Position numbers and translations under genes: made by a program. From Clostridia bacterium (GTDB lineage: Bacteria > Bacillota > Clostridia > Christensenellales > Aristaeellaceae), in NCBI GenBank assembly GCA_017460325.1, contig JAFUBF010000482.1, forward strand, positions 1 to 44,436: DNA of 44,436 nt. Reading direction: 5' to 3'. Below are positions 30,173 to 44,436 of this stretch, piece by piece. The notes under the pieces were generated by a model that saw only the letters and a program-made list of their open reading frames with translations, made no database searches and was not told where the DNA came from. Within the stretch, counting starts at the first letter, position 1; each line of letters begins with the position of its first letter.

Positions 30173-30655
30173 GTGCTGGCGAAAAACACCTCCTGGCAGC
30201 TGACCTGTCAGGTACTTCCGGAGGAGGCGGATGACAAGACCGTTCTGTGGAAATCGACGAACGAGGCGGTGGCCACCGTCGATGAATCCGGTCGGGTCAC
30301 AGCAGTGGGCACTGGAACTACCACCATCACAGGCACCGCCGGGGACGGATCAAAAGTGAAGGCGCAGATCGGAGCTACCGTGAAGGCATATGATCTGGTA
30401 CTGACAGGAGATCAGAGCGAGGATGTCTCTGCCGTGCTGTTTGATGGGGTGGTGACAGTTTCCGGACAAAAGGTGACAGGAGAGTTTGATGAAACAAAGG
30501 TAAAGTTCCGAAAAGGCTGTGCCGTGATCGAAAACGGCCTCCTGAAACCGCTGAAACCGGGAGAGGATACGGTAACCCTGTCCTACCTGGTGGACGGCAG
30601 GGAAAAGAAAGGGACCTTCACGCTGTATGTTTCCCGGGACTGCGTGAATGAGTGA
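30173..30655 (+). CDS. Bacterial Ig-like (Big_2) domain protein, probably a 5'-truncated remnant
   Basis: Big_2 pattern: TSWQLTCQVLPEEADDKTVLWKSTNEAVATVDESGRVTAVGTGTTTITGTA. The ORF opens 12 nt after an in-frame stop, starts at GTG, has no signal peptide and has no convincing RBS. Confidence 0.4.
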   Translation: MLAKNTSWQLTCQVLPEEADDKTVLWKSTNEAVATVDESGRVTAVGTGTTTITGTAGDGSKVKAQIGATVKAYDLVLTGDQSEDVSAVLFDGVVTVSGQKVTGEFDETKVKFRKGCAVIENGLLKPLKPGEDTVTLSYLVDGREKKGTFTLYVSRDCVNE

Positions 30656-30685
30656 GCTGCGGGGAACAGATTTCCATAATACGAA

Positions 30686-30714
30686 AGAACACGGGCCGGG
30701 CCCGTGTTCTTTGG
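30686..30714. terminator. Hairpin terminator between convergent genes
   Basis: AGAACACGGG (30686-30695) pairs with CCCGTGTTCT (30701-30710), followed by TTGG. The T-tract is short. Confidence 0.55.
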
Positions 30715-30743
30715 TACTATGGAATCGGTGGGGATAGGGGCAA

Positions 30744-31715
30744 TCAGAGAAGATTGACGCGGAGATCGTCCACAGACGGGAGGGTATGGATGATGCCCCG
30801 GTCAAACATCCACTGGATGTTTTCCTGCCAGCACAGATCCGACTGGGTCAGGAACGGGACATCCTCCTTTTCCATCATGGGGAGCAGAACATTCATGCTC
30901 TTTTCCTCCACTTCAGGGGAGAGCGGGAAATTTTCCTCAGTCTGATTGTCGAGCAGATTTCCGAGGGAGGCGGCAGGGTCCGCTTTCATGTCCGCGAATC
31001 CGCGGGCAGAGGCCCGCAGAAAGGCCCTGAGGGTGTCGCTGTCCTGATCAATCATGCGATCACTGGCCAGAAAAACGGCCTCGTAATAGGTGGGGACGCC
31101 GTACTCGTCCAGGGGAAAGTAGCTGACCTCGAACCCTTCCTTTTCAAGCTGGGGAACCTCGTGGTTGACGAGGCAGCCGATGGTCGCATCCACGTTTCCG
31201 GTGGTCATGGAGGACATGAGATCAAAGCCCACGTCGATCAGGTGGACATCCGATTCACTGGCGCCGACATACTTCATCATGGAGGCGATAATCTCCTCGC
31301 TGAGTTCTGTGCCGGCGTAACCGACGGTTTTCCCGACCAGATCGGCGGGGGAATGGATTCCCCTGTCCCGGAGGGACAGAACGATATTCAGCGGACCCTG
31401 TACAATTGCCCCGATGGATTTGACGGGGACATGCTGATTGGCCCGGGCCTGAATGATGTCCTGCTGATAGTAAACGCCGATGTCGGCGCGGCCTGCGGCC
31501 ACCAGGGACAGGGCGTCATTGCTGTTTGAGGGAAAGCGGATGTTAACCTGAAGCCCTTCCTCGGCATAATACCCTTTCTGAATGGCCGTGTAAATGAAGG
31601 CGTGCAGGGCATTGGGATACCAGTCGAGGACCACATCCAGTTCTCTCAGGGGCGCTGCCTGAGCGATGACGGCAAAGAGGCACAGGATAAAAAGAATGGC
31701 AAGAAGGCGTTTCAT
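30744..31715 (-). CDS. thiY: NMT1/THI5-like ABC substrate-binding protein (ThiY-like, HMP/pyrimidine precursor binding)
   Basis: ATG 31715 follows AAGGAG, with signal peptide MKRLLAILFILCLFAVIAQAAP. The NMT1/THI5-like block is LDVVLDWYPNALHAFIYTAIQKGYYAEEGL. It sits in a thiamine locus. Confidence 0.7.
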   Translation of the reverse strand: MKRLLAILFILCLFAVIAQAAPLRELDVVLDWYPNALHAFIYTAIQKGYYAEEGLQVNIRFPSNSNDALSLVAAGRADIGVYYQQDIIQARANQHVPVKSIGAIVQGPLNIVLSLRDRGIHSPADLVGKTVGYAGTELSEEIIASMMKYVGASESDVHLIDVGFDLMSSMTTGNVDATIGCLVNHEVPQLEKEGFEVSYFPLDEYGVPTYYEAVFLASDRMIDQDSDTLRAFLRASARGFADMKADPAASLGNLLDNQTEENFPLSPEVEEKSMNVLLPMMEKEDVPFLTQSDLCWQENIQWMFDRGIIHTLPSVDDLRVNLL

Positions 31716-31897
31716 GGCGTACACTCCTTTTATGTTGCTTTGGCTTTCGGCATCGTATGATTAACAGGGAACATGATTTGACAAAACGGTGCTGCGCACC
31801 GGGCCCACTCCCTTAAGATTGACAGGGCAAGGTTTGACAAACCAGTGCAGACTTTGCCCATTCCTCTGTTCGTTTATCGATTGAAACCCGGAAGGGC

Positions 31898-32653
31898 TCA
31901 GGATTCGCCACGCCAGCGTACCAGATGCCGTTCCAGCAGGCTGACGCCGGTGACGGCCAGCATGGCGATGAGGGACATGAGGACGATGGGGGCAAAGACC
32001 CCGGCGCCGTCCAGCTGGGTCATCATGCGCCGTGAGAAATAACCGAGCCCGTTCTGTGCACCCAGCCATTCGCCGATGGCGGCCCCGATGATGCTCATGG
32101 GGATGGACATCTTGATGGCGGAGAAAAAGGAGGGCAGGGCACAGGGGACCTTGATTTTGAAGAAAATATCCCGTTTCCCGGCGCCATAGGTGAGAAGAAG
32201 CTCGGCCATTTCGACCCGGGCGGACTTGAAGCCGTCAAATACCGTGATGGTGATGGGGAAAAAGGTGATGAGAATGGTGACCACGACCTTGCTCCAGATG
32301 CCATATCCGAACCAGAGGACGAACAGCGGGGCAATGGCGGTGGTTGGGATGGTCTGGGAGGCCACCACGATGGGATAGAGAGATTTGTACATCAGGGGAC
32401 TGGCATCCATCAGGATGGCCAGGCCGAGCCCGAGAACCAGAGAGATGAGCAGCCCGATGGCTGTGACCTGCAGGGTGGCCGGCAGATGGACGGTGAAAAG
32501 CGGCACCCGCAGTTCGTAGAGACGGACCAGGATCTGGATGGGCGAGGGCAGAATGTACGCGGCGTTGATGTTCATGGCACTGACCTGCCAGAAGAGGAGG
32601 AGAAGGAAGAGAAAGATCAGGGCGGGCAAATTGCCCGAATTGGCCTTTTTCAC
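31898..32653 (-). CDS. thiX: ABC transporter permease (NitT/TauT family, ThiX-like)
   Basis: 251 aa with six predicted TM segments. Its start overlaps the stop of the upstream ATPase gene (32650-32653). Confidence 0.75.
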   Translation of the reverse strand: MKKANSGNLPALIFLFLLLLFWQVSAMNINAAYILPSPIQILVRLYELRVPLFTVHLPATLQVTAIGLLISLVLGLGLAILMDASPLMYKSLYPIVVASQTIPTTAIAPLFVLWFGYGIWSKVVVTILITFFPITITVFDGFKSARVEMAELLLTYGAGKRDIFFKIKVPCALPSFFSAIKMSIPMSIIGAAIGEWLGAQNGLGYFSRRMMTQLDGAGVFAPIVLMSLIAMLAVTGVSLLERHLVRWRGES

Positions 32654-33426
32654 GTGATCACCTGCTTTCGGAGGGCAGCGAGCAGTGCTTCGCGCAACTC
32701 GACAATCTCAGGCCGGGACAGGTCCCGGCGTGTTCTGCTACCGGGGAGCGGGACGGGAATACGGGAAAGTTCCCGGATCGGGGTGTCCGTCACCACCAGA
32801 ATATCGCTCGAGAGATACAGCGCCTCCTCCACGTCATGGGTGATGAAGAGGATGGTTTTGCCGCTGCCCTGCCACTGCGCCCGCAGCCATTCCTGCATGT
32901 CAATGCGGGTCAGATAGTCAAGTGCCGAGAAGGGCTCATCCAGGAGCAGCAGATTGCTGCCGGTGAGCATGGTCCTTGCAAATGCAGCCCGCTGACGCAT
33001 TCCGCCGGAGAGTTCCTCCGGTTTTTTGTCGATACAACCCTCAAGACCCACGCTGGCAAGGGCCTCCCGGACCCGGTTTCGTATCTCGGTCCCGGAGAGA
33101 CCGCCCCGGATTTCAAGCGGGAGCGCGAGATTCCGGCCGACACTTCGCCAGGGAAACAGCAGATCTTTCTGCGGCATATATCCGCAGTACTGGCGAAGAC
33201 CGGTGATATTCTCTCCGCCCACCCGGATCTCGCCGGCATCGGGCCGGAGCAGTCCGTTGATGAGACGGAAGATGGTGCTCTTGCCGCAGCCACTGACCCC
33301 CAGCAGGCAGTGAAAGGCGCCGGGCTGGACCTGGAAGGACAGGTGCTCAAGGGTATCCTGGGGATCCCCGGGATACCGGAAGGTGACATGGTCAAAATCC
33401 AGAATACTCATAGCTGCTGTTCCCAT
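32650..33426 (-). CDS. thiZ: ABC transporter ATP-binding protein (ThiZ-like)
   Basis: Walker A GVSGCGKST, signature LSGGMRQR, Walker B LLLLDEPFSALD. The alternative start ATG 33411 would avoid overlap with tenA. Confidence 0.8.
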   Translation of the reverse strand: MGTAAMSILDFDHVTFRYPGDPQDTLEHLSFQVQPGAFHCLLGVSGCGKSTIFRLINGLLRPDAGEIRVGGENITGLRQYCGYMPQKDLLFPWRSVGRNLALPLEIRGGLSGTEIRNRVREALASVGLEGCIDKKPEELSGGMRQRAAFARTMLTGSNLLLLDEPFSALDYLTRIDMQEWLRAQWQGSGKTILFITHDVEEALYLSSDILVVTDTPIRELSRIPVPLPGSRTRRDLSRPEIVELREALLAALRKQVIT

Positions 33427-34067
33427 GCCATATCCCAGAAGGCGAGCTCATAGCGGCTGCAGTTCACAAAGATTTCCGTCAGGCGGGCCCGCTCGGCCGC
33501 ATCGGCGGATTCTGCCAGATCGTCCATAAGCCGGATCAGGGCCTCATTGGTACGCTGATATTCCTCTGAGGTATAGCCCGTAATCCATTCGCCGTAGAAC
33601 GGATGGGCTGCGGCCCCCGGGACACTTCCCAGTGCGCTTCCGATTTCCGCATAACTCCAGGAACAGGCAAGAATGGCCGCCACGATTTCAGCGGGGCCGC
33701 CTGCCTCTGCAATGGCTAGCATGTAATGCGTATAGGAGAGATTGGCCAGGGCCGGTGTAACCTGCAGGACGTCCTCCTCCCGGATGCCGAGACGCTGCAT
33801 ATACGCACGGTGGAGGTTCATCTCCCCGTTCAGGGTCGCCTCCACGTTCCGGGCAAATTCCCGCATCAGGACCGGATCCCGGGCCTTCACGACGCCCAGA
33901 GCGAAAACGCGGGCATAGTCGAAGAGGTACAGGTAATCCTGCAGCATGAAGAAGCGGAACTTTTCCATGTCAAGGGTGCCGTCGCCAATGCCCCGGACAA
34001 AGGGGTGATCCAGGCACTGTGCCCAGATTTCGGCGGCTGCGGCATGCATCTGTTCGGTCAGTTTCAT
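33408..34067 (-). CDS. tenA: TenA family aminopyrimidine aminohydrolase (thiaminase II)
   Basis: HPFVRGIGDGTLDMEKFRFFMLQDYLYLFDYARVFALGV is typical of TenA. The start overlaps the thiD stop (ATGA). Confidence 0.85.
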   Translation of the reverse strand: MKLTEQMHAAAAEIWAQCLDHPFVRGIGDGTLDMEKFRFFMLQDYLYLFDYARVFALGVVKARDPVLMREFARNVEATLNGEMNLHRAYMQRLGIREEDVLQVTPALANLSYTHYMLAIAEAGGPAEIVAAILACSWSYAEIGSALGSVPGAAAHPFYGEWITGYTSEEYQRTNEALIRLMDDLAESADAAERARLTEIFVNCSRYELAFWDMAWEQQL

Positions 34068-34876
34068 TTATCTGCCTCCTCCCCGATAAACGAACTCCGG
34101 AGGTCATAGAGATGATTCATGGGTCCGCGGCCGCTGCCCAGATCCAGCATGGCGGCCAGTGCACCGGAGATGTATTCCTTTGCCCGCTCCACCGCGGTCT
34201 CAAGGGGCATGTCCTTGGCCAGGTTGGCGGCAATGGCGCTTGAAAGGGTGCATCCCGTTCCGTGGGTGTTTGGGTTCAGAATGCGGCGGCCCCTGAACCA
34301 GTGGAGCGTTCCGCTCTGCCAGAGGAGGTCGTTGGCATCATTGAGATCGTGTCCGCCTTTGAGGAGGACGGCGCAGCCCAGGCGCTGCCCGATCCGGTCC
34401 GCGGCCTTTTCCATGTCGTCAGGGCTGGTGATGTGCAGGCCGGAGAGGATCTCCGCCTCCGGAATGTTCGGCGTAATGATCTCGGCCAGGGGGAGCAGGC
34501 GGGTGATGAGGCTCTCAAGGGCATCATCCCGCAGCAGCTTGGCACCGGAGGTGGCGACCATGACCGGATCGGCCACGATGTGCCGGGCCCTGTACTGCGT
34601 CAGCTTTTCGGCGATGACCTCAATCAGGTCACGGGAGGAGACCATGCCGATCTTGACGGCATCTGGATAGATATCCGTAAAGACGGCGTCAAGCTGGCTG
34701 GCGAGGAATTCCGGTGTTGAATCCAGAATGGCGGTGACGCCGGTGGTGTTCTGGGCCGTCAGGGCGGTTACGGCGGTCATGGCAAAGACGCCGTTTGCGC
34801 TCATGGTCTTAGTGTCCGCCTGGATTCCGGCGCCGCCGCTTGAATCGCTTCCGGCGATGGATAATGCTGTTTTCAC
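34064..34876 (-). CDS. thiD: Hydroxymethylpyrimidine/phosphomethylpyrimidine kinase
   Basis: ALSIAGSDSSGGAGIQADTKT and GTGCTLSSAIAANLA motifs. Confidence 0.9.
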   Translation of the reverse strand: MKTALSIAGSDSSGGAGIQADTKTMSANGVFAMTAVTALTAQNTTGVTAILDSTPEFLASQLDAVFTDIYPDAVKIGMVSSRDLIEVIAEKLTQYRARHIVADPVMVATSGAKLLRDDALESLITRLLPLAEIITPNIPEAEILSGLHITSPDDMEKAADRIGQRLGCAVLLKGGHDLNDANDLLWQSGTLHWFRGRRILNPNTHGTGCTLSSAIAANLAKDMPLETAVERAKEYISGALAAMLDLGSGRGPMNHLYDLRSSFIGEEADK

Positions 34877-34962
34877 GGGAATGCTCCTTTCATTTACCGG
34901 CCAATTCCGGCCGGAATAAAGAAAAGCGGTGTCCTTCCGGACACCGCTTCAGTCTGGCGCGT

Positions 34963-35481
34963 TTACTGCCCCAGGTGGGCAGTGAGGCTGTTTAATGCGC
35001 CGCTCCGCTTGAGAGCCAGAGCGACGACGGCAGCGATCACTGATCCCACAACGGTGGAGATCAGGAAGGGAACGATATAGGCATAGAAAGCCACGTTCGC
35101 TGCCGAAACGCCCATGAAGGAAATGGCGATGGGATAAGCCAGCAGACCGCCAATGATGCCGGTCCCGATGATCTCACCCACAGCAGTGGGAATGACTTTC
35201 TTTGTATAGCGGTATACAAGTCCGCTGAGCAGGGCACCGCACATGCTACCCGGGAAAGCCATGAGGCTGCCAAGACCCAGCAGATTACGAAGGAGGCTGG
35301 CCAGAAAGGCGACGCCCACGCCGTACCCGGGGCCCAGCAGAATGGCACAGAAGACGTTGACCATGTGCTGCACGGGGGCGCATTTGCTGCCCAGAACGGG
35401 GAAGGAAAGCAGGCTGCCGACGACGGCAACCGCAACCAGAATACCGGCCAGTGCCAGCCGGAGTGTGGAATTGTTTTTCAT
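34963..35481 (-). CDS. thiW: ECF-type thiazole precursor transporter S component ThiW
   Basis: 172-aa membrane protein. The ThiW-like N-terminus is LRLALAGILVAVAVVGSLLSFPVLGSKCAPVQHMVNVFCAILLGP. AAAGGAG RBS. It lies downstream of a TPP-like element. Confidence 0.75.
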   Translation of the reverse strand: MKNNSTLRLALAGILVAVAVVGSLLSFPVLGSKCAPVQHMVNVFCAILLGPGYGVGVAFLASLLRNLLGLGSLMAFPGSMCGALLSGLVYRYTKKVIPTAVGEIIGTGIIGGLLAYPIAISFMGVSAANVAFYAYIVPFLISTVVGSVIAAVVALALKRSGALNSLTAHLGQ

Positions 35482-35489
35482 ATCGATCG

Positions 35490-35625
35490 CTCCTTTGATT
35501 ATAGGCAGGGGATCAGCAGCAAAACAGACAGCTTCCCCCCGGGGAAAACGGCATGAACCCTCTGCGGTCCGTGCCGGTCGGTCGAGACTAACTGGTCTCC
35601 TCTCACGCCGGAGGGGATTCGGTTT
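35490..35625 (-). promoter_or_regulatory. Divergent TPP (THI-box) riboswitch-like element upstream of thiW
   Basis: The minus strand reads CCCCTCCGGCGTGAGAGGAGACCAGTTAGTCTCGACCGACCGGCACGGACCGCAGAGGGTTC. It has a GUGAGAGG core in place of CUGAGAGG, a GAGAC/GTCTC hairpin and a (A)CCG...CCGCAGAGGG 3' half resembling ACCUGAUC...GCGUAGGGA. The match is clearly weaker than for the thiM element. Confidence 0.5.
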
Positions 35626-35801
35626 CGAATCCGTCCCGAAGGGACAAGATCCGCCGTGCGGACCTTCCTTATACGGCTTCCCATCGCTGTCCTGTATCGT
35701 TTCCGATACGACCGCCGCAGGGCGCTCCCCCTCCGGCGGGTCCCGTCTCCCGGGACGTTTTGCGCTTCCCCTCCTTTCGTCAAAAGATCAATCGGCCGGA
35801 T

Positions 35802-36440
35802 TCAGTCTGAAACCAGCTGCTCCGAAAGCTGACGGAGCAGAACGGATTCACCGTAGATATCCGGGGCCGAAAAGATGCCGGATACGACGGCAACCCCCCG
35901 AATCCCGGTGCCGGCAAGCCCGGCGATGTTCTGCCGGCTGATGCCGCCGATGGCCACCACGGGAATTCGGACGGAGGCGGTAATTTCGCGAAGTCTGTCC
36001 ATGGTCATGAACGGAACACCGGGCTTGGTGGTCGACCCGAAGACGGCGCCGCTGCCCAGGTAATCCGCGCCGGCTGCCTCGGCTGCCCGGGCCTGCTCCA
36101 CGGTTTTGGCCGTGACACCGAGAATCCTGTCGGGGCCGATGCGGGCCCGGACATCGCCGGCGGGCAGATCGCTCTGACCGACGTGCACCCCGTCTGCTCC
36201 GCAGGCCAGTGCAATCTCGATGCGGTCATTGATGATCAGCGGAACCTGATGGGCCTGACATACCTCTTTCAGCCGGCGGGCCTCCTCCAGGAAGCGGGCA
36301 TCATCTGCGGTCTTATCCCGGAGCTGGATCATGGTGGCGCCGCCCAGAATTGCGGACCGGACCTGTTCGACCAGGTCAGGCCCGGCAGCGGGATCGGTGA
36401 GGGCATAGAGCCGCAGCATGGACTCAGTAAATCTTTTCAT
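35802..36440 (-). CDS. thiE: Thiamine-phosphate synthase
   Basis: Motifs LYALTD, GADGVHVGQSDL, GADYLGSGAVFGSTTK and VVAIGGI. ATG 36440 is preferred because GAAGGAAG lies 6 nt upstream. The track start is 36467, and 36419 is also possible. Confidence 0.88.
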   Translation of the reverse strand: MKRFTESMLRLYALTDPAAGPDLVEQVRSAILGGATMIQLRDKTADDARFLEEARRLKEVCQAHQVPLIINDRIEIALACGADGVHVGQSDLPAGDVRARIGPDRILGVTAKTVEQARAAEAAGADYLGSGAVFGSTTKPGVPFMTMDRLREITASVRIPVVAIGGISRQNIAGLAGTGIRGVAVVSGIFSAPDIYGESVLLRQLSEQLVSD

Positions 36441-37230
36441 ACAGGGCTTCCTTCTCCAGTGTTTCATCGGTCAGAACGGAAAGGGCATCCAGAAGATAGG
36501 TTCGGAAACTGGCATTACCCTCTGTGGGGGATAGCCGCCGGGCGGCCCATTGGCCGCAGATCCCGTGGGCGCAGACGGCGGCCAGGGCAGCGATGAGCGG
36601 GCTTTCCGGACAGGCAGCCAGGTACGCGCCGGTCAGGGCGGAGAGCATACAGCCGGTCCCGGTGACAAGGCGCATCATGGGGGTTCCGTTCCGGACCAGG
36701 TAGAGGGTGGTGCCGTCGGTGACAATGTCCTCGGCGCCGCTCACGACGACGACCGCCTTTCGCTGCTGCGCCACGCGGCGGGCCATGTGGATGATCCCCT
36801 CTGCCTCGTGTTCCGGGGCGTCGACGCCGCCCGGTACGGGCCTGTCGGTATACAGGACCTCCAGTTCTCCGGCGTTTCCGCGGATCACGGTGACGGGAAC
36901 GGTGTCAAGAATGCGCCTCGCCGCCGCCCGCCTGAACGAGGAGGCACCGACGCCCACCGGATCGAAGACGATGGGGTGACCCAATTGACCGGCTCTTTGC
37001 CCGGCCAGACACATGGCCTCAATCTTTCCGGTACTGGGTGTTCCGAGGTTCAGTACCAGTCCGTCGCAGCCCGAGGTAATCTCGCTGACTTCCTCCGGCG
37101 CCTCCGCCATAATGGGCGAGGCGCCGCAGCCGAGCAGCAGATTGGCGCAGTCGTTGGAGGTGACGTGATTGTCAATGCAGTGAATCAGTGGATGTCGGGC
37201 CCGGTTTCGGACAATGATACGGTTAAACAT
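36424..37230 (-). CDS. thiM: Hydroxyethylthiazole kinase
   Basis: PLIHCIDNHVTSNDCANLLLGCGASPIMAEAPEEV and VTGTGCMLSALTGAYLA motifs. Confidence 0.9.
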   Translation of the reverse strand: MFNRIIVRNRARHPLIHCIDNHVTSNDCANLLLGCGASPIMAEAPEEVSEITSGCDGLVLNLGTPSTGKIEAMCLAGQRAGQLGHPIVFDPVGVGASSFRRAAARRILDTVPVTVIRGNAGELEVLYTDRPVPGGVDAPEHEAEGIIHMARRVAQQRKAVVVVSGAEDIVTDGTTLYLVRNGTPMMRLVTGTGCMLSALTGAYLAACPESPLIAALAAVCAHGICGQWAARRLSPTEGNASFRTYLLDALSVLTDETLEKEALYEKIY

Positions 37231-37239
37231 GCTTTACTC

Positions 37240-37372
37240 CAATAAAAAACAGGCGTCCCTGACGGAACGCCTGCTGGCTCGCGGTTTGCTCCCTACGACG
37301 GCATTATCCGTATCAGGTTAAAGGGTCGAAGGTATCGCCTTCCTCTCAGCGTGCATATACAGCTCCCCTGTC
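37240..37372 (-). promoter_or_regulatory. TPP riboswitch with terminator expression platform (controls thiM-thiE)
   Basis: The minus strand reads AGGGGAGC...GCACGCTGAGAGGAAGGCGATACCTTCGACCCTTTAACCTGATACGGATAATGCCGTCGTAGGGAGC. The terminator follows: CAGGCGT/ACGCCTG (37250-37273) then TTTTTTATT. Confidence 0.92.
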
Positions 37373-37379
37373 AGTGCCA

Positions 37380-37597: not shown

Positions 37598-37626
37598 TTG
37601 ACGAAAAAGGCCGGATTGACTATCAT
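37598..37626 (+). promoter_or_regulatory. Sigma-A promoter candidate for the exopolysaccharide operon
   Basis: TTGACG (37598-37603), a 17-nt spacer, then TATCAT (37621-37626). This leaves a ~100-nt leader before ATG 37732. Confidence 0.55.
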
Positions 37627-37731
37627 AACACTGTAAGCAGCGGCTCTGTCTGCAAGATGATACAGGCAGGGCAGGGGAATGAAAAGAACCGGTCCGAGCG
37701 ACAGACCGGCAGAAGGAGTTGAACCCGGCAG

Positions 37732-39054
37732 ATGGGACTGTATGAGCGACTGATATCCGGTGAGTGCAAACTGGCCGTTATCGGAATGGGATATGTGGGC
37801 ATGCCGCTGGCACTGGCGTTTGCCGAGCACCTGGGGGTGATCGGATTTGATGTCAATCAGCGGAAAATCGAACAGTATCAAAGCGGATTTGATCCGACAA
37901 TGGAGGCGGGAAACGAGAAAATTCGCCGGACAAAAGTGGAATTTACCAGTGATGAAAACCGTCTCTCGGAAGCCGGTTTTTTTGTTGTGGCGGTTCCCAC
38001 CCCCATCTATGATGACAAGAAGCCGGACCTGAGGCCGGTGGAATCCGCCTGCGAGATCGTCGGACGGCACCTGAGTCAGGGGGCCATTGTGGTCTTTGAG
38101 TCGACGGTTTATCCGGGGGTGACCGAGCACGTCTGTGTGCCGATCCTGGAAAAGACGTCGGGGCTTCGCTGCGGGACGGATTTTAAGGTGGGCTATTCGC
38201 CGGAGCGGATCAATCCCGGTGACCGGGTTCACCGCCTTGAAAACATCCGGAAGATCGTTTCGGGCATGGATGAGGAATCCCTTGAGGTCATTCGCCGCAC
38301 GTATGACCTGATCATTGAGGCAGGAACCTACCCGGTATCCAACATCCGGACGGCGGAGGCGATCAAGCTGGTTGAAAACAGCCAGAGGGACATCAACATC
38401 GCTTTCATGAACGAGCTGGCCATGCTGTTCGATCTCATTGACATTGACACCAATGAGGTCGTTGACGGGATGAACACCAAGTGGAATGCGCTGGGATTTC
38501 GTCCCGGTCTGGTGGGCGGTCACTGCATCGGGGTGGACCCCTATTACCTGGTCTATGAGGCGGAAAAGCAGCGCTTTACCGATCAGATCGTCATGGCAGC
38601 CAGACGGGTCAATGACGTCATGGGAAAATTCATCGCGCGGGCCACGATCCGTCAGATGTCGCGTGCCGGTCTGGCGCCGAGCCTGGCCAAAGTGGTGATT
38701 CTGGGACTGACCTTTAAGGAGAACTGCCCCGACATCCGGAACACCCGGGTGGTGGATATTATCGACGAACTGAAAGAATACAGTGTTGAGCCCATTGTCT
38801 GTGATCCCCTGGCAGACCCGGAGGAGGTCAGGCGGGAATACGGGATTGAACTGGCGGATCCTTCGGATCTGCACGGCGTGGACTGCCTGATCGTGGCGGT
38901 AGCCCATGACCGGTATAAAGACCTCACCAAAGAGGAGATTCTGGCGTTTTTCGAGGGAAGCAGCAATGCCCGCCATGTGCTGATTGATGTAAAGGGCATA
39001 TACGGGAAACACGAATTTGAGAAGATGGAGAACATGATACTCTGGAGGCTGTAA
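37732..39054 (+). CDS. Nucleotide-sugar 6-dehydrogenase, TviB/WbpO/VipA-like (UDP-GlcNAc or UDP-GalNAc dehydrogenase type)
   Basis: N-terminal Rossmann motif KLAVIGMGYVGMPLALAF. Further blocks are VVAVPTP, YSPERINPGD, VENSQRDINIAFMNEL and GLVGGHCIGVDPYYL. I associate the last block with the TviB-type branch rather than Ugd (GGSCFPKD). Confidence 0.8.
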   Translation: MGLYERLISGECKLAVIGMGYVGMPLALAFAEHLGVIGFDVNQRKIEQYQSGFDPTMEAGNEKIRRTKVEFTSDENRLSEAGFFVVAVPTPIYDDKKPDLRPVESACEIVGRHLSQGAIVVFESTVYPGVTEHVCVPILEKTSGLRCGTDFKVGYSPERINPGDRVHRLENIRKIVSGMDEESLEVIRRTYDLIIEAGTYPVSNIRTAEAIKLVENSQRDINIAFMNELAMLFDLIDIDTNEVVDGMNTKWNALGFRPGLVGGHCIGVDPYYLVYEAEKQRFTDQIVMAARRVNDVMGKFIARATIRQMSRAGLAPSLAKVVILGLTFKENCPDIRNTRVVDIIDELKEYSVEPIVCDPLADPEEVRREYGIELADPSDLHGVDCLIVAVAHDRYKDLTKEEILAFFEGSSNARHVLIDVKGIYGKHEFEKMENMILWRL

Positions 39055-39071
39055 CTCCGGCGAGGTGGACA

Positions 39072-39965
39072 ATGAGCAATCTGAACGGACTGGCGAGTCA
39101 GGAGAACTTTGAAAAATTCCGCAGACAGTGGGTCGGGCTCACCATGGAGGAGGCCGGCAAGTGGACCATGAACGCGGATACACAGGCGCTGCTGACCGAG
39201 GCGGTGCTGGCCACATTGCGCCAGGAATACGCCGGCCGTGTCCCCTCGGGAAACATGACCTATTTCATCCGCGCCCAGGCCTGCCTGATCTTCAGTATCA
39301 CCGGCGACAGCCCGAAGCGGCTGCGGGAATACATCGAGAGCCACGGCCTCGCGGACAGCATGCCTGTACCGGCCCCGGTGAGGACCGGAGTGCCCCGAAA
39401 TGAACAGAAGGCCGAACCCGTGAGCCGCTTGTCCGGGGATGGGACCGGCGCTTTGCACCGGCGCCGCCGGACCGGTGAGGCGGGAAGCCGTTACGGAAGC
39501 CCGGTTGCATCCATTGGGACGGAGGGGCTGGATTCCTTCCGGCCAGTAACCTCTGTCGGTGCGGAACATTCGCCGCCTTCCCGGGAATCCGGGGAAGGAA
39601 CCGTGCCAGGCACCCCGGCAATGCCCGTAACGGCAGAGGCGCAAATGCCGGTCACCGAAAAAACGGAGGCACCTGTGCCGGCCGAATCTGTGACTGATGC
39701 ACCGGTCCCCCCGGCAACAGCCAGGCCTGCGGCGAGACGGGAGGCGGACACCTTCTATGATCCGGAGCGGACACAGTTCTGGACGCCGGGACCGCTGGAG
39801 GAAACCGAACATGTGGTGCAGGAACTGTCCCTTCCGGACGAGGAGGTGACGGATCCGCCGTCGCCCCGGCTTTCCCTCATCAATACATGTCTCTTTATTG
39901 CCATGATTGCGTCCTTTATTTTCATGGTGTATGAATCCCGGGTGATTCAGCATTATCTTCTGTGA
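39072..39965 (+). CDS. Hypothetical tail-anchored protein with Pro/Ala/Glu-rich linker
   Basis: GAGGTGG RBS. It has an N-terminal ~95-aa globular region, a low-complexity middle (PVPAPVRTGVP...PAMPVTAEAQMPVTEKTEAPVPAESVTDAPVPPATARP) and a single C-terminal TM segment (LSLINTCLFIAMIASFIFMVY). Confidence 0.6.
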   Translation: MSNLNGLASQENFEKFRRQWVGLTMEEAGKWTMNADTQALLTEAVLATLRQEYAGRVPSGNMTYFIRAQACLIFSITGDSPKRLREYIESHGLADSMPVPAPVRTGVPRNEQKAEPVSRLSGDGTGALHRRRRTGEAGSRYGSPVASIGTEGLDSFRPVTSVGAEHSPPSRESGEGTVPGTPAMPVTAEAQMPVTEKTEAPVPAESVTDAPVPPATARPAARREADTFYDPERTQFWTPGPLEETEHVVQELSLPDEEVTDPPSPRLSLINTCLFIAMIASFIFMVYESRVIQHYLL

Positions 39966-39973
39966 GGTTGAGC

Positions 39974-40732
39974 ATGGACAGACAGAAAGAATTCAAAAAG
40001 TTTCTCGGACGGTATAAGGCCTCTGAGGTCGACCGGTATCTGCTTGAACTGGGGCAGGAAAGGGCAACACAGGAGGCAAAGCTGGACAGTTTGCGGCGTG
40101 CGGCTGAGCAGGAAAGCCAGTCGCTTCGGGCGCAGGCGGAAAAGGAGCGGCAGGAAAAAGCGCTGCTTGAGGAAAAGCTGGGTCAGGCGGCGGAGGAGCG
40201 GCGGCTGGATCAGATGAATGCCGAGATGCTGCGCAAGGAGATCCGGACGCTTGAAAAGCGTCTTGCGGATGCCAAAGAGGAAAACCGGGCCTGTGTTTCG
40301 GAAAACAGACGGCTGAAGGCAGATCTGGAGGAGGCGCGGCACAGGCAGGAATCTGTGCAGGAGGAGCTCAGCTTTGCCCAGCTTCAGGCTGAGCAGCTGG
40401 GGCAGAGAGCCGCCAGCCAGCGGATGGAAATTGAACGCCTTGAGAAGATGATTGAGGCGAATCCCGTTGGGGATGCCAATCTGAAGGCACAGAAAATCGT
40501 CCAGGAGGCGGTGGATACCAGCCAGAAAATGCTGGACGATGCGGAAAATGTCCGCTCACAGGCCACGGCGGCGGTCCGTGCCGCGTACTTCAATGCCATG
40601 GGATTCCGGCAGGTGATTGAGGAGCGCTTTGTGAACCTCCAGCATGAGCTGGACAAGTCCATGGGCTCGCTTCGGATGCTGCAGTCACCGGGGAGCTATC
40701 CTGTGTATGTTTCCGGAGAGAACGATGAATAA
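39974..40732 (+). CDS. DivIVA-domain coiled-coil protein
   Basis: The N-terminal FKKFLGRYKASEVDRYLLEL fits the DivIVA motif (F..x.rGY...EVD.fL). About 200 aa of coiled coil follow. ATG 39974 is preferred over 39962. Confidence 0.65.
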   Translation: MDRQKEFKKFLGRYKASEVDRYLLELGQERATQEAKLDSLRRAAEQESQSLRAQAEKERQEKALLEEKLGQAAEERRLDQMNAEMLRKEIRTLEKRLADAKEENRACVSENRRLKADLEEARHRQESVQEELSFAQLQAEQLGQRAASQRMEIERLEKMIEANPVGDANLKAQKIVQEAVDTSQKMLDDAENVRSQATAAVRAAYFNAMGFRQVIEERFVNLQHELDKSMGSLRMLQSPGSYPVYVSGENDE

Positions 40733-42281
40733 CAGATGGGTATTGCTGCTGCTTTTGCTGGGGCTCCTGGCTGTGCTGTCCGGCTGTTCCGCGTTTTCGC
40801 GGAAGGCGGAGGTCACCCCTGAGCCGGAGGTGAAGACGGTGACCCCGACCCCCATGCCCCGGATTGATGCCAGCCCTGCCAAGCTTCTCAGTGGCGTGGA
40901 GACGGACAGGAAGGTTGTGGCCCTGATCTTTGAGGGGTATACGGATGACCTGACGGTGGAGGCCATTGCTGGCGCCCTTCAGGACCGCCATGTGCCCTCG
41001 ACGTTCTTTGTTTCGGGCGTCACGGCAGATGAGCATGGAGAGCTGCTGAAAAAGGTGGCCGAAATGGGCTTCGGCATCGGGAATTACGGTATGAGCGGGG
41101 CGAAAAAGCTGGAACGGCTTCCGGCCTATCAGAACGCGGAACAGTTTAAAAAGACCCAGGACCTGATCACCCGTGCCGCCGGCATTCGACCGACCTATAT
41201 CCGCTGCAACGGAACCGTCTATACCGAGGATGTCCTTCGGGCGGTGACGGCCGGCGGGCTGGAGGTGGCGGTTGAGCCCAGTGCGTACCTGAATCACCGC
41301 AGTTTCAAAACCGAGGCGGATGCCGGCCTGTACACTCAGTCCGTGATCCTGGGCAGCATCATTTCGGTCAAGCTGGGACAGGAACTGGACAAGGACGAGT
41401 TCGGCGAAGTGGAAGATGAACTGGATGAGCGTCCCGCCATTGATCCCAGCCCCGGGATCCGCCGGGACTGGGAGGCCACGGATGAACGGTTTGTGGATCG
41501 TCCCAAGATGGTCGGCTGGCTGGTGGACCAGCTGCGGAAGGCCGGGATCACACTGGTGAGTCTTGATGAACTGGAGGCCAGCCGGGTGACCCTGCTTGAA
41601 AAAAGGCGTGAACTCAACGAAGAGGAAAAGGAGCTCCTGACCTACCGAAAGGGCGCCCTTCCGCTGACGGAGGAGCCGCTGAGTGCCGGACAGTTCCGGG
41701 CCGGATCCCAGGAGGATTTCGCCGGTGCCGTCTTTGTGGGGGACTCTGTCATGGCCGGTGTCGGGGACTATGTGCAGTGGCGGCGGCAGATTAATCCGTC
41801 CTACCTCTCCGACGCGGTTTTCCTGACGGAAAACAACATGACGGTGGAATCGCTTCTCGCGGAGACGAATCCCATCGAGGACCGGCTGGCTGAGATGGGG
41901 GCCCGGAGTGTCTGGCTGTGCCTCGGCTTTACAAGCCCGGAGGGATACAGGCGGGAGGCCTACCTGCTCAACTATCGCCTGCTGGTGTACCGTATCCGGC
42001 AGAAAAATCCGGGAATCCGGGTGATCGTGATGAGCATTCCGCCCCGGCTGGAGGGCTATGCGGGCGTTGGAAATGAGCAGCGGTTCCGGTTGAATCAGAT
42101 GCTTTGCGGCATGGCGAAGATGTACGGGCTGGGATTTGTGGATGCGGCGTATCCCCTGCGGGACCGGACGGGGGCGCTTGAGGCATCCTACTGTCTGGAT
42201 GCGGTGACCTATGGGCGGCATCTCAATGATGCCGGCTGTGAGACACTCCTGTCCTTTGTCCAGATGCACATGCCGGAGTAG
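40725..42281 (+). CDS. Lipoprotein with NodB-like (polysaccharide deacetylase fold) N-domain and SGNH/GDSL-type C-domain
   Basis: ATG 40725 overlaps the upstream stop (ATGAATAA), and the lipobox is LAVLSGC. NodB-like blocks are VVALIFEGYTDD, STFFVSG and GFGIGNYGMSG. The SGNH block I is AVFVGDSVMAG (GDS at 41739-41747), with a C-terminal GRHLNDAG. Confidence 0.65.
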   Translation: MNNRWVLLLLLLGLLAVLSGCSAFSRKAEVTPEPEVKTVTPTPMPRIDASPAKLLSGVETDRKVVALIFEGYTDDLTVEAIAGALQDRHVPSTFFVSGVTADEHGELLKKVAEMGFGIGNYGMSGAKKLERLPAYQNAEQFKKTQDLITRAAGIRPTYIRCNGTVYTEDVLRAVTAGGLEVAVEPSAYLNHRSFKTEADAGLYTQSVILGSIISVKLGQELDKDEFGEVEDELDERPAIDPSPGIRRDWEATDERFVDRPKMVGWLVDQLRKAGITLVSLDELEASRVTLLEKRRELNEEEKELLTYRKGALPLTEEPLSAGQFRAGSQEDFAGAVFVGDSVMAGVGDYVQWRRQINPSYLSDAVFLTENNMTVESLLAETNPIEDRLAEMGARSVWLCLGFTSPEGYRREAYLLNYRLLVYRIRQKNPGIRVIVMSIPPRLEGYAGVGNEQRFRLNQMLCGMAKMYGLGFVDAAYPLRDRTGALEASYCLDAVTYGRHLNDAGCETLLSFVQMHMPE

Positions 42282-42320
42282 GTGAGGCGCGGATGGGGCC
42301 TGAAAAACAGAGGAAGTCAT

Positions 42321-44144
42321 ATGAAGAATAAGAAGGTTATTGAGGACCGCATCCTGGAGGCGCAGGGCGACCGCCGGCTGATGCCCAATGTCCCGGATCC
42401 GTCCAACCGCCGCAGTAATCATGACCGGCGGGACAATAAGTCGGACGATGATTCCAGGCCGCAGTATGCCACCTATGCCGGGCAGCGGTTCAGTGTTCAC
42501 GTCAAAACACGGGTGCTGCTGGACAACGGGAAAAGCTTTGAGGGGAACACCATCGATATCTCGCAGACCGGCATGATGCTCCATGTTCCCGAGGCCATGC
42601 GGTCCCTTCCTTTTGAGAAGGAACAGCACCTCCGCCTGACCTTCCGGCTGCAGGAGGGGGATCTGCAGGAGGGAACGGAGAAGAAATACAAGAAGATCTC
42701 CGCCAAGATCATGCGGGTCATCGGGGACGGGGAAAAGCTGGCCATTCAGTTTTCCCATCCCCTCTATGAGGAGCGGCGCAAGACGGATGGACTGCTGTTC
42801 ACCCTTTCGGTGCTGTTCCTGTTCCTTTGTACCCTGGTGATCATGTTCATGCGGGTGGAGAGCATTGCGGAGTTTGCCAAAAGCCCGATGCTCTACGGAT
42901 ACAGCATCCTGACGGCCCTGTTCCTTTTGACCCGGTATCTCTTTGGCGTGTTTTACCATCCGGTACCCGTGGACCCGACCTTTACCCCCAGTGTCACGGT
43001 GGTCATTCCCTGCTTCAATGAGGAGGAGTGGATCCGCACTACCATTCTCAAGTGTGTCGACCAGGATTACCCGGTGGACCGGCTGGAATTCATCATTGTG
43101 GACGACGGGTCCTCCGACAATTCGGTGGAGGTCATCAAGAAAACCGTGGAGGACCTCCGAAAGGAAGGTCCGCAGTACGATATCGAGAACCGGGTCCGGG
43201 TCTTTTTCCAGAACTATAATCAGGGCAAGCGTGAGGCCATGGGCATCGGCATCCGGAACTGCCGGACCGAGCTCATCGTCTTCGTGGATTCGGACAGTTT
43301 CCTGCAGCCCAATGCCATTCGCTGTCTGGTGCAGCCCATGCGGGATCCCCAGACGGCGGGGGTGGCGGGGAGAACGGATGTGGCCAACATCTATACGAAT
43401 CACCTGACCAAAATGCAGGCAGTCCGCTATTACATCTCGTTCCGCGTGATGAAGGCGGCGGAGGCTTATTTCGATTCCGTCATGTGCCTGAGCGGTCCGC
43501 TTTCCTGTTACCGGATTTCGGCGGTCCGTGAGGTGTTTGACAAGTGGATCAACCAGAAATTCCTCGGTCAGAAGGCGACGTTCGGGGATGACCGGAGCCT
43601 GACCAATTATGTGGTGGAAAACCACCGGACTTACTACCAGGACACGGCCATCTGCTCCACCATCGTGCCCAACCGGCACCGCCAGTTCCTCCGCCAGCAG
43701 ATGCGCTGGAAGCGGTCCTGGCTTCGGGAGTCGCTGCGGGCGGGGCGCTTCATCTGGCGCAAGCAGCCCTTCATGTCCTTTTTCTTCTATCTCGGGCTGC
43801 TGGTGCCGCTGATTGCCCCCATCATCGTCCTTTACAACGTGGTCTATGTGCCCCTTACTCAGGGGGTCTTTCCGACGACGTTCCTGCTGGGCCTGCTCAT
43901 GATGTCTTTCATGATGTGCTTTGCCCAGCTGATTCTGAAAAAGAGTACACTCTGGATTTACGGTCTCCTGTTCTGTCTGTATTACGAGTTTTTCCTCCTC
44001 TGGCAGATGCCCTGGGCCTGGGTCACGTTCTGGGTCAATGACTGGGGCACCCGCGGCAAGGGCAAGAAACGCGTGGCAAAGAAGGCGGAGACCGGACAGA
44101 ATCCGGGCAGTACCTCGCAGGCAGGGGTGACGGCAAATGGATGA
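42321..44144 (+). CDS. Class I hyaluronan-synthase-like processive GT2 glycosyltransferase with N-terminal PilZ-like domain
   Basis: GAGGAAG RBS. The N-terminal ~165 aa form a PilZ-like region with DISQTG (42555-42572). The remainder aligns by eye along streptococcal HasA: VVIPCFNEEE, IIVDDGSSDNS, QGKREA, FVDSDSFLQPNA, LSGPLSCYR, FGDDRSLTNY (GDDR at 43584-43595), QQMRWKRSWLRES (QMRW at 43698-43709) and a C-terminal DWGTRGKGKK. Confidence 0.85.
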   Translation: MKNKKVIEDRILEAQGDRRLMPNVPDPSNRRSNHDRRDNKSDDDSRPQYATYAGQRFSVHVKTRVLLDNGKSFEGNTIDISQTGMMLHVPEAMRSLPFEKEQHLRLTFRLQEGDLQEGTEKKYKKISAKIMRVIGDGEKLAIQFSHPLYEERRKTDGLLFTLSVLFLFLCTLVIMFMRVESIAEFAKSPMLYGYSILTALFLLTRYLFGVFYHPVPVDPTFTPSVTVVIPCFNEEEWIRTTILKCVDQDYPVDRLEFIIVDDGSSDNSVEVIKKTVEDLRKEGPQYDIENRVRVFFQNYNQGKREAMGIGIRNCRTELIVFVDSDSFLQPNAIRCLVQPMRDPQTAGVAGRTDVANIYTNHLTKMQAVRYYISFRVMKAAEAYFDSVMCLSGPLSCYRISAVREVFDKWINQKFLGQKATFGDDRSLTNYVVENHRTYYQDTAICSTIVPNRHRQFLRQQMRWKRSWLRESLRAGRFIWRKQPFMSFFFYLGLLVPLIAPIIVLYNVVYVPLTQGVFPTTFLLGLLMMSFMMCFAQLILKKSTLWIYGLLFCLYYEFFLLWQMPWAWVTFWVNDWGTRGKGKKRVAKKAETGQNPGSTSQAGVTANG

Positions 44145-44436
44145 CAGATGGCTGGTTCGGAAAAACCGGCTGAAGGTGATCCGGACCATTTTTGAGCTGA
44201 TCGTCATGGTCCTGGCCCTGGCCTGGGTGATCTGGTCGCTTCGGAGCTATCGGCTTTCCCAGGCGAAACCGGAGGCCATGCCGCCGGAAAAAGAGAGCAC
44301 CATGATCGCCTCCGACACGATTACGGCGGGCTATGAGAGTATGGGCCATGCCTCCGGAACGCATTTCATTGCCCTGTCCTATAACGGTGTGGTATCAAAG
44401 CCTGTTGAGGGCGGCAAAATTGTCAACCTGCAGGCC
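44137..44436 (+). CDS. Single-pass membrane protein, 3'-truncated by the window end (downstream member of the EPS operon)
   Basis: ATG 44137 overlaps the synthase stop (ATGGATGA). The sequence is MDDRWLVRKNRLKVIRTIFELIVMVLALAWVIWSL (TM) followed by ...GTHFIALSYNGVVSKPVEGGKIVNLQA, open to the end of the window. It is absent from the ORF track because it has no stop. Confidence 0.6.
   Translation, partial: MDDRWLVRKNRLKVIRTIFELIVMVLALAWVIWSLRSYRLSQAKPEAMPPEKESTMIASDTITAGYESMGHASGTHFIALSYNGVVSKPVEGGKIVNLQA

Follow-up and report, generated by a model that had tools for sequence, protein, structure and literature searches.

The window analysed here is a stretch of 44,436 nt from a gut/rumen Clostridia bacterium of the family Aristaeellaceae (GCA_017460325.1, contig JAFUBF010000482.1). 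Its final part, 37732-44436, carries the beginning of an operon centred on a glycosyltransferase family 2 (GT2) synthase that resembles class I hyaluronan synthases (HAS) and bears an N-terminal PilZ domain. From 37732 to the window end, the plus strand is occupied by a single uninterrupted series of open reading frames (ORFs): five genes are complete, and the sixth is present only in its first 100 codons (Table 1). Start codons were picked from a six-frame ORF list by ribosome-binding site (RBS) and ortholog lengths. An earlier reading of this DNA, referred to below as the original prediction, had listed six genes in order, with gaps of 8-40 nt and two 8-nt overlaps. All six ORFs were recovered on the plus strand in that order, and the junctions match exactly. 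The dehydrogenase (DH) and Pro-rich genes are 17 nt apart, the Pro-rich and coiled-coil genes 8 nt, and the lipoprotein and synthase genes 39 nt. The coiled-coil and lipoprotein genes (ATGAATAA) and the synthase and PgaB-like genes (ATGGATGA) each overlap by 8 nt.

Upstream of the DH gene we found a promoter-like site, followed by a stem-loop (37688-37710) and an AGGAG RBS. An Rfam scan detected neither a cyclic di-GMP (c-di-GMP) riboswitch nor any other RNA element upstream of the operon; its sole match in the window was a thiamine pyrophosphate (TPP) riboswitch.

No exact copy of the window's synthase sequence was on record, and the continuation of the operon was read from contigs whose synthases are 92% identical to it (L001-L003). 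Past the window end, these contigs encode a 635-aa PgaB-like protein, a 338-aa secreted GH18-like protein and a 567-aa protein with a transmembrane (TM) anchor and two CE4 domains. A gene for an SH3 protein follows the 567-aa gene after a gap of 137 nt and has its own promoter-like site, and a pattern scan of the 92%-identical relatives revealed no convincing terminator inside the operon. The best explanation is that the window holds the 5' two-thirds of an eight-gene synthase-dependent exopolysaccharide (EPS) operon. A six-gene operon, as first proposed, is too short: the count comes to eight genes, and the window stops 100 codons into gene 6. The downstream extension called for at the time could be made through these relatives, in which the PgaB-like, GH18-like and two-CE4 genes complete the operon. 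The further membrane protein said to run off the window is the TM-anchored PgaB-like protein; its fragment is 74% identical to the L001 ortholog (P0121/L001:11814-13721). The central claim, that of a genuine exopolysaccharide-type operon built around a HasA-type, PilZ-fused synthase, was borne out by domains, fold, signatures and tight gene coupling.

Table 1. Features located in the 44,436-nt window, those of the EPS operon first
Feature	Position	Strand	Remarks	Basis
UDP-N-acetylhexosamine (UDP-HexNAc) dehydrogenase, TviB-like	37732-39054	+	440 aa	Pfam, NCBIfam, PDB matches
Pro/Ala-rich tail-anchored protein	39072-39965	+	297 aa	Translation, ortholog alignment
DivIVA/GpsB-like coiled-coil protein	39974-40732	+	252 aa from ATG 39974; ORF opens at GTG 39962	
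CE4/SGNH lipoprotein	40725-42281	+	518 aa	Pfam, LSGC lipobox
PilZ-fused class-I-HAS-like GT2 synthase	42321-44144	+	607 aa	Pfam, PDB search, AlphaFold2 (AF2), Foldseek
PgaB-like membrane-anchored protein, first 100 codons	44137-44436	+	Cut by window end; 635 aa in full	
Promoter-like site TTGACG-17-TATCAT	37598-37626	+	Upstream of DH	Consensus match only
TPP riboswitch	37273-37379	-	Heads thiamine salvage operon divergent from EPS operon	Rfam
JetD3 (Wadjet)	572-1546			PADLOC
JetA3 (Wadjet)	1551-3173			PADLOC
JetB3/DUF6063 (Wadjet)	3148-3867			PADLOC
JetC3 (Wadjet)	3842-8272			PADLOC
NamZ exo-beta-N-acetylmuramidase	12068-13402		Salvage-like cluster	
GH3	13520-15784	-	Salvage-like cluster	
Opp-type ABC transporter	16012-22056		Salvage-like cluster	
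Second GH3	22032-24305		Salvage-like cluster	

The synthase family and its relation to HAS

The synthase is predicted to comprise a PilZ domain (residues ~56-146), two TM helices, a GT-A domain (~225-450), interface and TM helices, and a C-terminal WGTRGKGKK gating motif. Pfam recognised PilZ at 39.2 bits (cut-off 22.5) together with GT2/Chitin_synth_2. HasA motifs had been picked out by eye in this protein, and all were found in the translation and the alignment: VDDGSSD, VDSDS, FGDDRSLTNY, QQMRWKRS and WGTRGKGKK.

Sequence searches of the PDB returned strong matches only to HAS: Chlorella virus HAS (CvHAS) at 5e-35 and Xenopus HAS1 (XlHAS1) at 2e-32. Compared with annotated plasmid genes, the synthase scored higher with Bacillus anthracis HasA (38% identity, 175 bits) than with NodC (34%, 157 bits) or PgaC (25%, 96 bits). 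We then turned to predicted structure. The AF2 model (pLDDT 81.5, pTM 0.81) retrieved class I HAS, either XlHAS1 or CvHAS, at Foldseek ranks 1 to 13 (E 4e-22 to 7e-18; TM-score up to 0.66, target-normalised). BcsA (2e-13) and Chs1 (2e-11) trailed the best HAS by nine to eleven orders of magnitude. NodC was the best NCBIfam model, at 185 bits against an equivalog cut-off of 550 (TIGR04242). The poly-N-acetylglucosamine (PNAG) synthase model TIGR03937 gave 111.6 bits against a cut-off of 422, and identity to Escherichia coli PgaC was 25%.

What distinguishes HAS from its GT2 relatives at the residue level? Three members of this family were compared in one alignment with sequences of HAS (three), NodC (three) and PgaC (two). 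At four signature positions, the family has the residues of HAS (Table 2). Synthase residues R369, Y370, F374 and K378 correspond to R287, Y288, F292 and R296 of XlHAS1, a register that was checked against the deposited chain, whose numbering is shifted by a constant 13 residues. The position equivalent to R287 is Glu in all three NodC and both PgaC sequences. Chitin synthases likewise have EDR at the GDDR position and QHFEY at the position of the Arg in the interface helix IF1 (PMC9556331). In hyaluronan-bound XlHAS1, R287 and R296 lie near GlcA-2, and mutants at these residues make shorter or deregulated hyaluronan (PMC11750622).

Table 2. Signature positions in the synthase family, HAS, NodC and PgaC
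Position	This family	HAS	NodC	PgaC
Catalytic motif	GDDR	GDDR	GEDR	TEDI
Gate/switch loop	SGPL	SGPL	CGPC	SGV(I/V)
After QxxRW	RWxxSxxRE	RWxxSxxRE	RWARSTFRD	RWA(Q/K)GG
IF1 channel entrance	R-Y	R-Y	E-Y	E-Y / E-F

Relatives of the synthase were found in at least 238 species in a scan of a genome collection with one genome per species. Locus counts given throughout refer to the best 80 loci of these at least 238 species (Clostridia and Negativicutes). They include Christensenellales, Oscillospiraceae, Lachnospiraceae, cultured Clostridium species, Desnuesiella, Tissierella, Holtiella, Pectinatus and Propionispora. The motifs VRY..FR..K, DSD, GDDR, Q[QR].RW and WGT[RSK] each occur in 80 of 80 loci. 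A full-length ortholog also resides on a megaplasmid of Paenibacillus cellulositrophicus, where its annotation is generic only.

By sequence, predicted fold and four signatures, then, the synthase is of HAS type. The original prediction of a HasA-type enzyme agrees with the 13 top Foldseek ranks, all class I HAS, and with the HAS-specific channel-entrance Arg, GDDR and SGPL. Judged by pairwise scores, the family is nonetheless separate from HasA, and as distant from HasA as HasA is from NodC. Synthase-HasA (172 bits), synthase-NodC (158), HasA-NodC (172) and synthase-CvHAS (126) form a star-like pattern. Databases name family members "glycosyltransferase", "hypothetical protein" or, automatically, "hyaluronan synthase" (JGI). 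We found no published characterisation of the family in the literature on PilZ surveys, bacterial chitin synthases, synthase-dependent systems or ydaJKLMN; the original prediction had suggested a polymer not yet described for this kind of organism. The bacterial chitin synthase genes of Goncalves et al. (PMC5122149) are proteobacterial division-1 chitin synthases and unrelated.

The PilZ domain of the synthase conforms to the pattern [DN].S.[TSG]G in 79 of the 80 loci. The window protein has DISQTG, and S, Q, T and G are invariant in 65 sequences. Some 20-40 residues N-terminal to the [FY]AGxR[FY] stretch that precedes PilZ strand 1, the family has conserved DRR and R(x4-5)RR clusters. Binding of c-di-GMP is plausible. 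Four of the 80 loci have a gene for a REC-GGDEF-EAL-type protein a few kb past the operon on its downstream side (L036 14225-15898 and three others; domains read by eye), and such genes might, weakly, favour control by c-di-GMP.

Partner proteins and the conserved core

Pfam identified three UDPG_MGDP_dh domains in the DH. The best NCBIfam model was TviB (447 bits), below the equivalog cut-off (NF011729, 592 bits), and the subfamily model TIGR03026 was passed (388 against 190 bits). UDP-ManNAc DH models followed at 227 and 208 bits, and UDP-glucose DH models reached at most 163. The PDB matches ranked in agreement: UDP-ManNAc DH 4r16 (193 bits), Cap5O (168 bits) and the GalNAcA DH 3g79 (162 bits), with UDP-glucose DHs at ~100 bits. 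On these scores the enzyme belongs to the UDP-HexNAc branch and not to the UDP-glucose branch, consistent with its first assignment to a UDP-GlcNAc/GalNAc group. With the TviB score below the equivalog cut-off, the sugar of the substrate could be GlcNAc, GalNAc or ManNAc. The enzyme would supply a UDP-HexNAc-uronic acid donor such as UDP-N-acetylglucosaminuronic acid (UDP-GlcNAcA).

A TviB-like DH gene adjoins the synthase in 32 of the 80 loci, and a HexNAc-type DH of any kind in 33. At L036, a non-orthologous WecC-like HexNAc DH, with best scores to UDP-ManNAc DH models, occupies the same place. The DH gene usually lies directly upstream of the synthase operon; downstream and opposite-strand placements also occur, the latter in five loci. 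DH identity tracks synthase identity across loci (r = 0.82). No UDP-glucose-type DH was found among the DHs adjoining the synthase in the 80 loci, and none was seen in the window. Absence of a DH was judged within 10-kb flanks. The DH is not part of the universal core.

Two loci, L006 (326-991) and L007 (5648-6313), carry a gene for a PAP2/undecaprenyl-diphosphatase (UppP)-like membrane protein upstream of the operon, in the place of the DH gene. On B. anthracis pXO1, too, a PAP2 gene precedes hasA, and ORFs resembling PAP2 recur near four Clostridium-type loci; the coordinates L087 666-1508 belong to this set of PAP2-like genes. This recurrence may be coincidence or a hint of a lipid-linked step.

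The core itself is simple. A large CE4 protein, the synthase, the PgaB-like protein and the GH18-like protein are encoded in this order essentially universally, in the 80 loci and on the Paenibacillus plasmid, and the PgaB-like gene lies directly 3' of the synthase gene in essentially all 80 loci. The original prediction missed the universal partners (PgaB-like, GH18-like and active CE4) because they lie past the window end. When flanking ORFs were clustered in search of other recurrent genes, such as those for diguanylate cyclases, epimerases and exporters, no cluster reached more than 5 of the 80 loci. One locus, L057 (7333-21807; Bacillota metagenome-assembled genome OH_HBlB_263), has two tandem copies of the whole core.

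All of the partner proteins bear a signal peptide, lipobox or TM anchor. The lipoprotein has an LSGC lipobox and matches Polysacc_deac_1 (55.6 bits) and Lipase_GDSL_2 (41.2 bits), both above the Pfam cut-offs. In its CE4 domain, FEGY and GNYGMSG replace FDDG and HxxxxH, both in the window copy and in five close orthologs of the Christensenellales/Oscillospirales branch. This domain is unlikely to be a deacetylase, because the Asp-Asp/His-His catalytic and metal residues are gone. The GDS serine of the SGNH domain is present in the window copy. Hence the description of a NodB-like/SGNH lipoprotein was right as to domains and lipobox, but the NodB-like (CE4) domain is catalytically degenerate. 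We propose that the lipoprotein acts as an extracytoplasmic polymer-binding or polymer-modifying factor.

Three parts are predicted in the full PgaB-like protein: a TM helix, a barrel of CE4 fold whose catalytic residues are altered, and a jelly-roll domain resembling CBM66 and L-type lectins. Its family profile matches the deacetylase domain of PgaB/IcaB/BpsB (2e-12), and Foldseek aligned its AF2 model (pLDDT 87.4) with PgaB 4f9d (1e-12) and CBM66 (2e-7). The residues that we take to have catalytic roles in PgaB are His55, Asp114, Asp115, His184 and His189; their identities were confirmed in the E. coli PgaB sequence. In the PgaB-like protein, H55 is replaced by N, P or F, D114 by E and H184 by N; D115 is kept, and H189 is ambiguous. 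Since the catalytic His55 and the metal-binding His184 are replaced and Asp114 is Glu, we read this protein as a polymer-binding partner and not as a PgaB-type enzyme. The lipoprotein CE4 domain and the PgaB-like protein were both considered as the active deacetylase and rejected on their catalytic residues.

Two proteins encoded past the window end retain catalytic motifs. The family profile of the 338-aa GH18-like protein matches YdhD 3cz8 (1.6e-17) and also YaaH/CFLE. The catalytic D-x-E is kept, in the form DGIEIDYE with invariant D and E, and the Paenibacillus ortholog is named GH18 by PGAP. Of the two CE4 domains in the 567-aa protein, only the C-terminal one is canonical (TFDDWG, HTHQH). 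One canonical CE4 domain is present at every locus aligned.

In the branch comprising Clostridium, Lachnospiraceae and Negativicutes (L039-L085; for example L045 7367-9925 and L041 6273-9560), a single upstream protein of 800-1400 aa replaces the SGNH lipoprotein and the two-CE4 protein. Five such proteins were aligned: they have at least two degenerate CE4 domains and a single canonical one at the C terminus, and they lack an SGNH domain.

The two remaining products of the operon may have scaffolding roles. The Pro-rich protein combines an N-terminal helical domain of ~85 aa with a low-complexity Pro/Ala linker; a FYDPxRTxxWTP motif is conserved, and a TM helix lies at the C terminus. It matched no Pfam, NCBIfam or PDB family. 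An impression that its N terminus resembles sigma-70 region 2 was not backed by family searches. It is presumed to be a cytoplasmic scaffold. At L006 (1315-2331), the Pro-rich gene is split in two, whether through a frameshift, a stop codon or an error of assembly, and these two ORFs suggest that the gene may be dispensable.

The coiled-coil protein had been called a DivIVA-domain protein. Its N-terminal KEFKKFLGRYKASEVDRYL does resemble the DivIVA N-domain, but the window copy alone is a weak match to Pfam DivIVA (PF05103, E = 0.12). The assignment draws support from its orthologs, 6 of 14 of which match (E <= 0.01; best 1e-7), and from the family profile, which matches the DivIVA N-domain 2wuj (E = 0.002) and also GpsB, amid coiled-coil noise. 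We presume that it positions or scaffolds the machinery. Within the family, only the Christensenellales/Oscillospirales branch (synthase identity at least 58%) has the DivIVA-like and tail-anchored genes; Clostridium and Negativicutes loci are without them.

Nature of the polymer

The chemistry of CE4 and GH18 enzymes requires 2-acetamido sugars, and GH18 enzymes need a beta-linked HexNAc at the cleavage site. Going by their domains, the partners outside the membrane indicate a beta-linked polymer with N-acetyl groups. An acidic second sugar is indicated by the basic, HAS-type entrance to the channel and by the repeated occurrence of a HexNAc DH. We think it moderately likely that the locus encodes a synthase-dependent system, probably gated by c-di-GMP, that makes a partly de-N-acetylated polymer of HexNAc and HexNAc-uronic acid.

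The sequence data establish which genes are present, how the operon is built, the domains and folds of its products, the HAS-type signatures, the conserved core and the recurring link to a DH; from these we infer the identity of the sugars, their alternation, c-di-GMP binding, deacetylation, hydrolysis and localisation as follows. In the cytoplasm, the TviB-like DH would oxidise a UDP-HexNAc, most likely UDP-GlcNAc, to the uronic acid nucleotide. The synthase would polymerise UDP-GlcNAc and this acidic donor and thread the chain through its own basic TM channel, its N-terminal PilZ domain tying output to a cytoplasmic signal, most likely c-di-GMP. Outside, the chain would be received or bound by the TM-anchored PgaB-like pseudo-deacetylase, with its lectin-like domain, and by the pseudo-CE4/SGNH lipoprotein. 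The canonical CE4 domain encoded past the window would strip some of the N-acetyl groups, and the GH18-like hydrolase would trim or release the polymer. At the cytoplasmic face, the DivIVA/GpsB-like and tail-anchored Pro-rich proteins may place the machinery.

Several observations weigh against this model. A DH gene lies within 6-10 kb of the synthase in only 21 of 46 well-sampled loci (those with at least 6 kb on both sides), and L006 and L007, the two closest relatives with 93%-identical synthases, have no adjacent DH. As the DH is missing from about half of the well-sampled loci, the acidic donor may be dispensable or encoded elsewhere. Since the family is equidistant from HasA and NodC, its product is not assignable by homology alone, and the residue argument draws on few characterised sequences. 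Binding of c-di-GMP is uncertain because the canonical RxxxR directly before PilZ strand 1 is missing, although the Arg clusters lie upstream; in its place is [FY]AGxR[FY], in which only the second Arg is kept. Outside the cell, three of the four CE4-like domains are degenerate, and the SGNH serine is Ala in two orthologs (L010 and L018).

Perhaps the product is neutral, a homopolymer of beta-1,4-GlcNAc like chitin or else long chito-oligomers, converted by the CE4 enzyme to a chitosan-like cationic polymer, with the DH a lineage-specific add-on for another pathway or a minor substituent? Chitin is classically processed by a GH18 enzyme paired with a CE4 deacetylase, the best NCBIfam model is NodC (185 bits), Pfam reports Chitin_synth_2, and about half of the loci, the nearest relatives among them, have no DH in their flanks. 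However, the four signature positions are HAS-like and not NodC/PgaC-like (RY not EY, GDDR not EDR, SGPL, RWxxSxxRE), and chitin synthases have EY and EDR at two documented positions (PMC9556331). The three basic IF1 residues are invariant in 80 of 80 loci, with or without an adjacent DH, and a HexNAc-type DH turns up repeatedly, in differing arrangements and also in the form of a non-orthologous substitute. We regard a neutral polymer of this kind as the main rival, but as unlikely. The same HAS motif set and fold, and the automatic JGI name "hyaluronan synthase" for some homologs, could be taken to mean authentic hyaluronan (GlcA-GlcNAc), as made by the streptococcal and Bacillus has operons. 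The DHs argue otherwise. Those adjoining the synthase in the 80 loci are 32 TviB-like enzymes and one UDP-ManNAc-DH-like enzyme (L036); with no UDP-glucose-type DH adjoining the synthase in these loci or seen in the window, true hyaluronan is unlikely. pXO1, by contrast, carries hasA-galU-ugd. The synthase is only ~33% identical to HasA and belongs to a distinct family, and CE4, GH18 and PgaB-like partners are not in the pXO1 has operon. To our knowledge, they are in no known has operon. Weighing these points together, we consider hyaluronan very improbable. A true has operon was rejected, the DH being of HexNAc type and no ugd being seen in the window or next to the synthase in the 80 loci.

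A further alternative concerns the role of the polymer and is compatible with the other readings: it could be a cell-envelope polymer made at poles or septa or at a developmental stage, directed by the DivIVA-like protein, and not a biofilm matrix EPS. The analogy would be with Streptomyces, in which CslA acts with DivIVA in tip-localised glycan synthesis. The operon contains DivIVA/GpsB-like and tail-anchored scaffold genes, and the closest relatives of the GH18-like protein (YdhD, YaaH/CFLE), like the closest CE4 models, PdaA and PdaB, are spore-cortex enzymes. The YdaJKLMN machinery also gathers at the cell poles in B. subtilis (PMC13274460). Yet the scaffold genes are limited to one branch of the family, a PilZ fusion is typical of signal-controlled matrix polymers, and there are no linked sporulation genes. 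An envelope role therefore appears quite improbable to us.

Returning to the HexNAc/HexNAc-uronic acid polymer, a more specific form of this idea can be put forward tentatively, as possible but still doubtful. Numerous Clostridia and Negativicutes, along with at least one Paenibacillus, would make an unknown glycosaminoglycan-like polymer in which a HAS-type enzyme alternates GlcNAc with a HexNAc-uronic acid such as GlcNAcA, an "N-acetylated hyaluronan analogue". Partial external de-N-acetylation would render it zwitterionic, the N-terminal non-canonical PilZ domain would act as a second-messenger switch, and in Christensenellales/Oscillospirales a DivIVA-like scaffold would organise the machinery.

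In its workings the locus resembles a cross between the has, pga and bcs paradigms, and it is a member of none. With class I HAS (bacterial HasA, Chlorella virus HAS and vertebrate HAS1-3), the synthase shares fold and topology, the motif set DxD, GDDR, SGPL, QQxRW-xxS-xRE and WGTR (the last C-terminal, as in bacterial HasA), and the basic IF1 residues (R287 and R296 of XlHAS1). It differs in its N-terminal PilZ domain, which the class I HAS compared here lack, and it is only 29-34% identical to them, separating at the depth of the HasA/NodC/CvHAS split. The partner in has operons is a UDP-glucose DH (hasB), whereas here the partners are a UDP-HexNAc DH and PgaB-like, CE4 and GH18-like proteins. 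NodC is a related GT2 enzyme likewise paired with a CE4-family deacetylase, NodB, for a GlcNAc chain, but it has GEDR, CGPC, EY and WLSR where the synthase family has HAS residues. In the nod loci that we fetched, nodA and nodI lie beside nodBC; here there is no ABC exporter and no NodA, and the CE4 proteins are extracytoplasmic. NodB is cytoplasmic, and export proceeds via NodIJ.

The PNAG systems PgaABCD and IcaADBC follow the same logic: a translocating GT2 enzyme, a partner of PgaB type in which the CE4 fold is joined to a second domain for carbohydrate binding, partial de-N-acetylation, hydrolase activity and, in E. coli, c-di-GMP control. With PgaC at 99 bits, the synthase nevertheless lies far nearer to HAS. 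The second domain of PgaB is GH153, whereas the PgaB-like protein has a lectin-like domain and lacks His55 and His184, and the hydrolase here is GH18-like. In the Pga system, c-di-GMP is sensed at the PgaC-PgaD interface; here the putative sensor is the fused PilZ domain, and PgaA and PgaD are absent. BcsA, like the synthase, combines a processive GT2 enzyme and a PilZ domain with intact DxSxxG in one chain and has a gating loop near the active site. This shared fusion and gating loop make a BcsA-like allosteric release plausible for the synthase. In BcsA, however, the PilZ domain is C-terminal, while that of the synthase is N-terminal with a non-canonical RxxxR; the fold match to BcsA is weaker, and there are no BcsB/BcsZ-type partners.

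B. subtilis ydaJKLMN is also a Gram-positive synthase-dependent EPS system without outer-membrane parts, with a GT2 enzyme, a hydrolase and membrane partners. Listeria pssA-E and Bacillus cereus pel are further Firmicute operons of that kind linked to c-di-GMP. YdaK, PssE and PelD are separate degenerate-GGDEF receptors, in contrast to the fused PilZ domain here, and the synthases, by description, are of different families.

If confirmed, this would be a new synthase-dependent system beside those for cellulose, PNAG, Pel, alginate and hyaluronan. Its hosts are abundant, little-studied gut and rumen anaerobes of the Christensenellales, Oscillospiraceae, Lachnospiraceae and Clostridium. Were a HAS-type enzyme to use a HexNAc-uronic acid, it would reveal how enzymes of class I pick their acidic donor and might provide a tool for new glycosaminoglycan-like materials. 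Host-facing zwitterionic or hyaluronan-like polymers of commensals could affect immune interactions, and an N-terminal PilZ domain with a non-canonical Arg motif would be a case for second-messenger gating of HAS-like synthases in Gram-positives. Cultured carriers exist, making direct testing feasible; they include Clostridium aciditolerans DSM 17425, C. sartagoforme, Desnuesiella massiliensis, Tissierella pigra, Holtiella tumoricola, Pectinatus haikarae DSM 16980 and Paenibacillus cellulositrophicus KACC 16577.

Genes surrounding the operon

The operon had been thought to lie in an unusual gene context. We found the context to be ordinary: next to the operon on its upstream side is a set of thiamine salvage genes that runs divergently under control of the TPP riboswitch, and this context is not kept in relatives. 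The thiamine operon, on the minus strand, encodes ThiM, ThiE, ThiW, ThiD, TenA, an ABC ATPase, a permease and an NMT1/THI5 binding protein. Together with a Big_2 fragment it forms a block of ~7.5 kb (30173-37379) between an asparaginase gene and the EPS operon, which is absent from the close relatives L001, L007 and L008. The asparaginase gene lies 7.8 kb upstream of the EPS operon in the window and directly adjoins the operon in the 92%-identical relatives.

Near its start (73-8272 region), the window contains a complete type III Wadjet anti-plasmid system (PADLOC E 7e-108 to 0; Table 1). It is preceded by a DpdE/ZorD-like SNF2 helicase, truncated at the start of the window so that just its C-terminal end is left. 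A peptidoglycan/amino-sugar salvage-like cluster, with two GH3 genes among its members, occupies 12068-24305.

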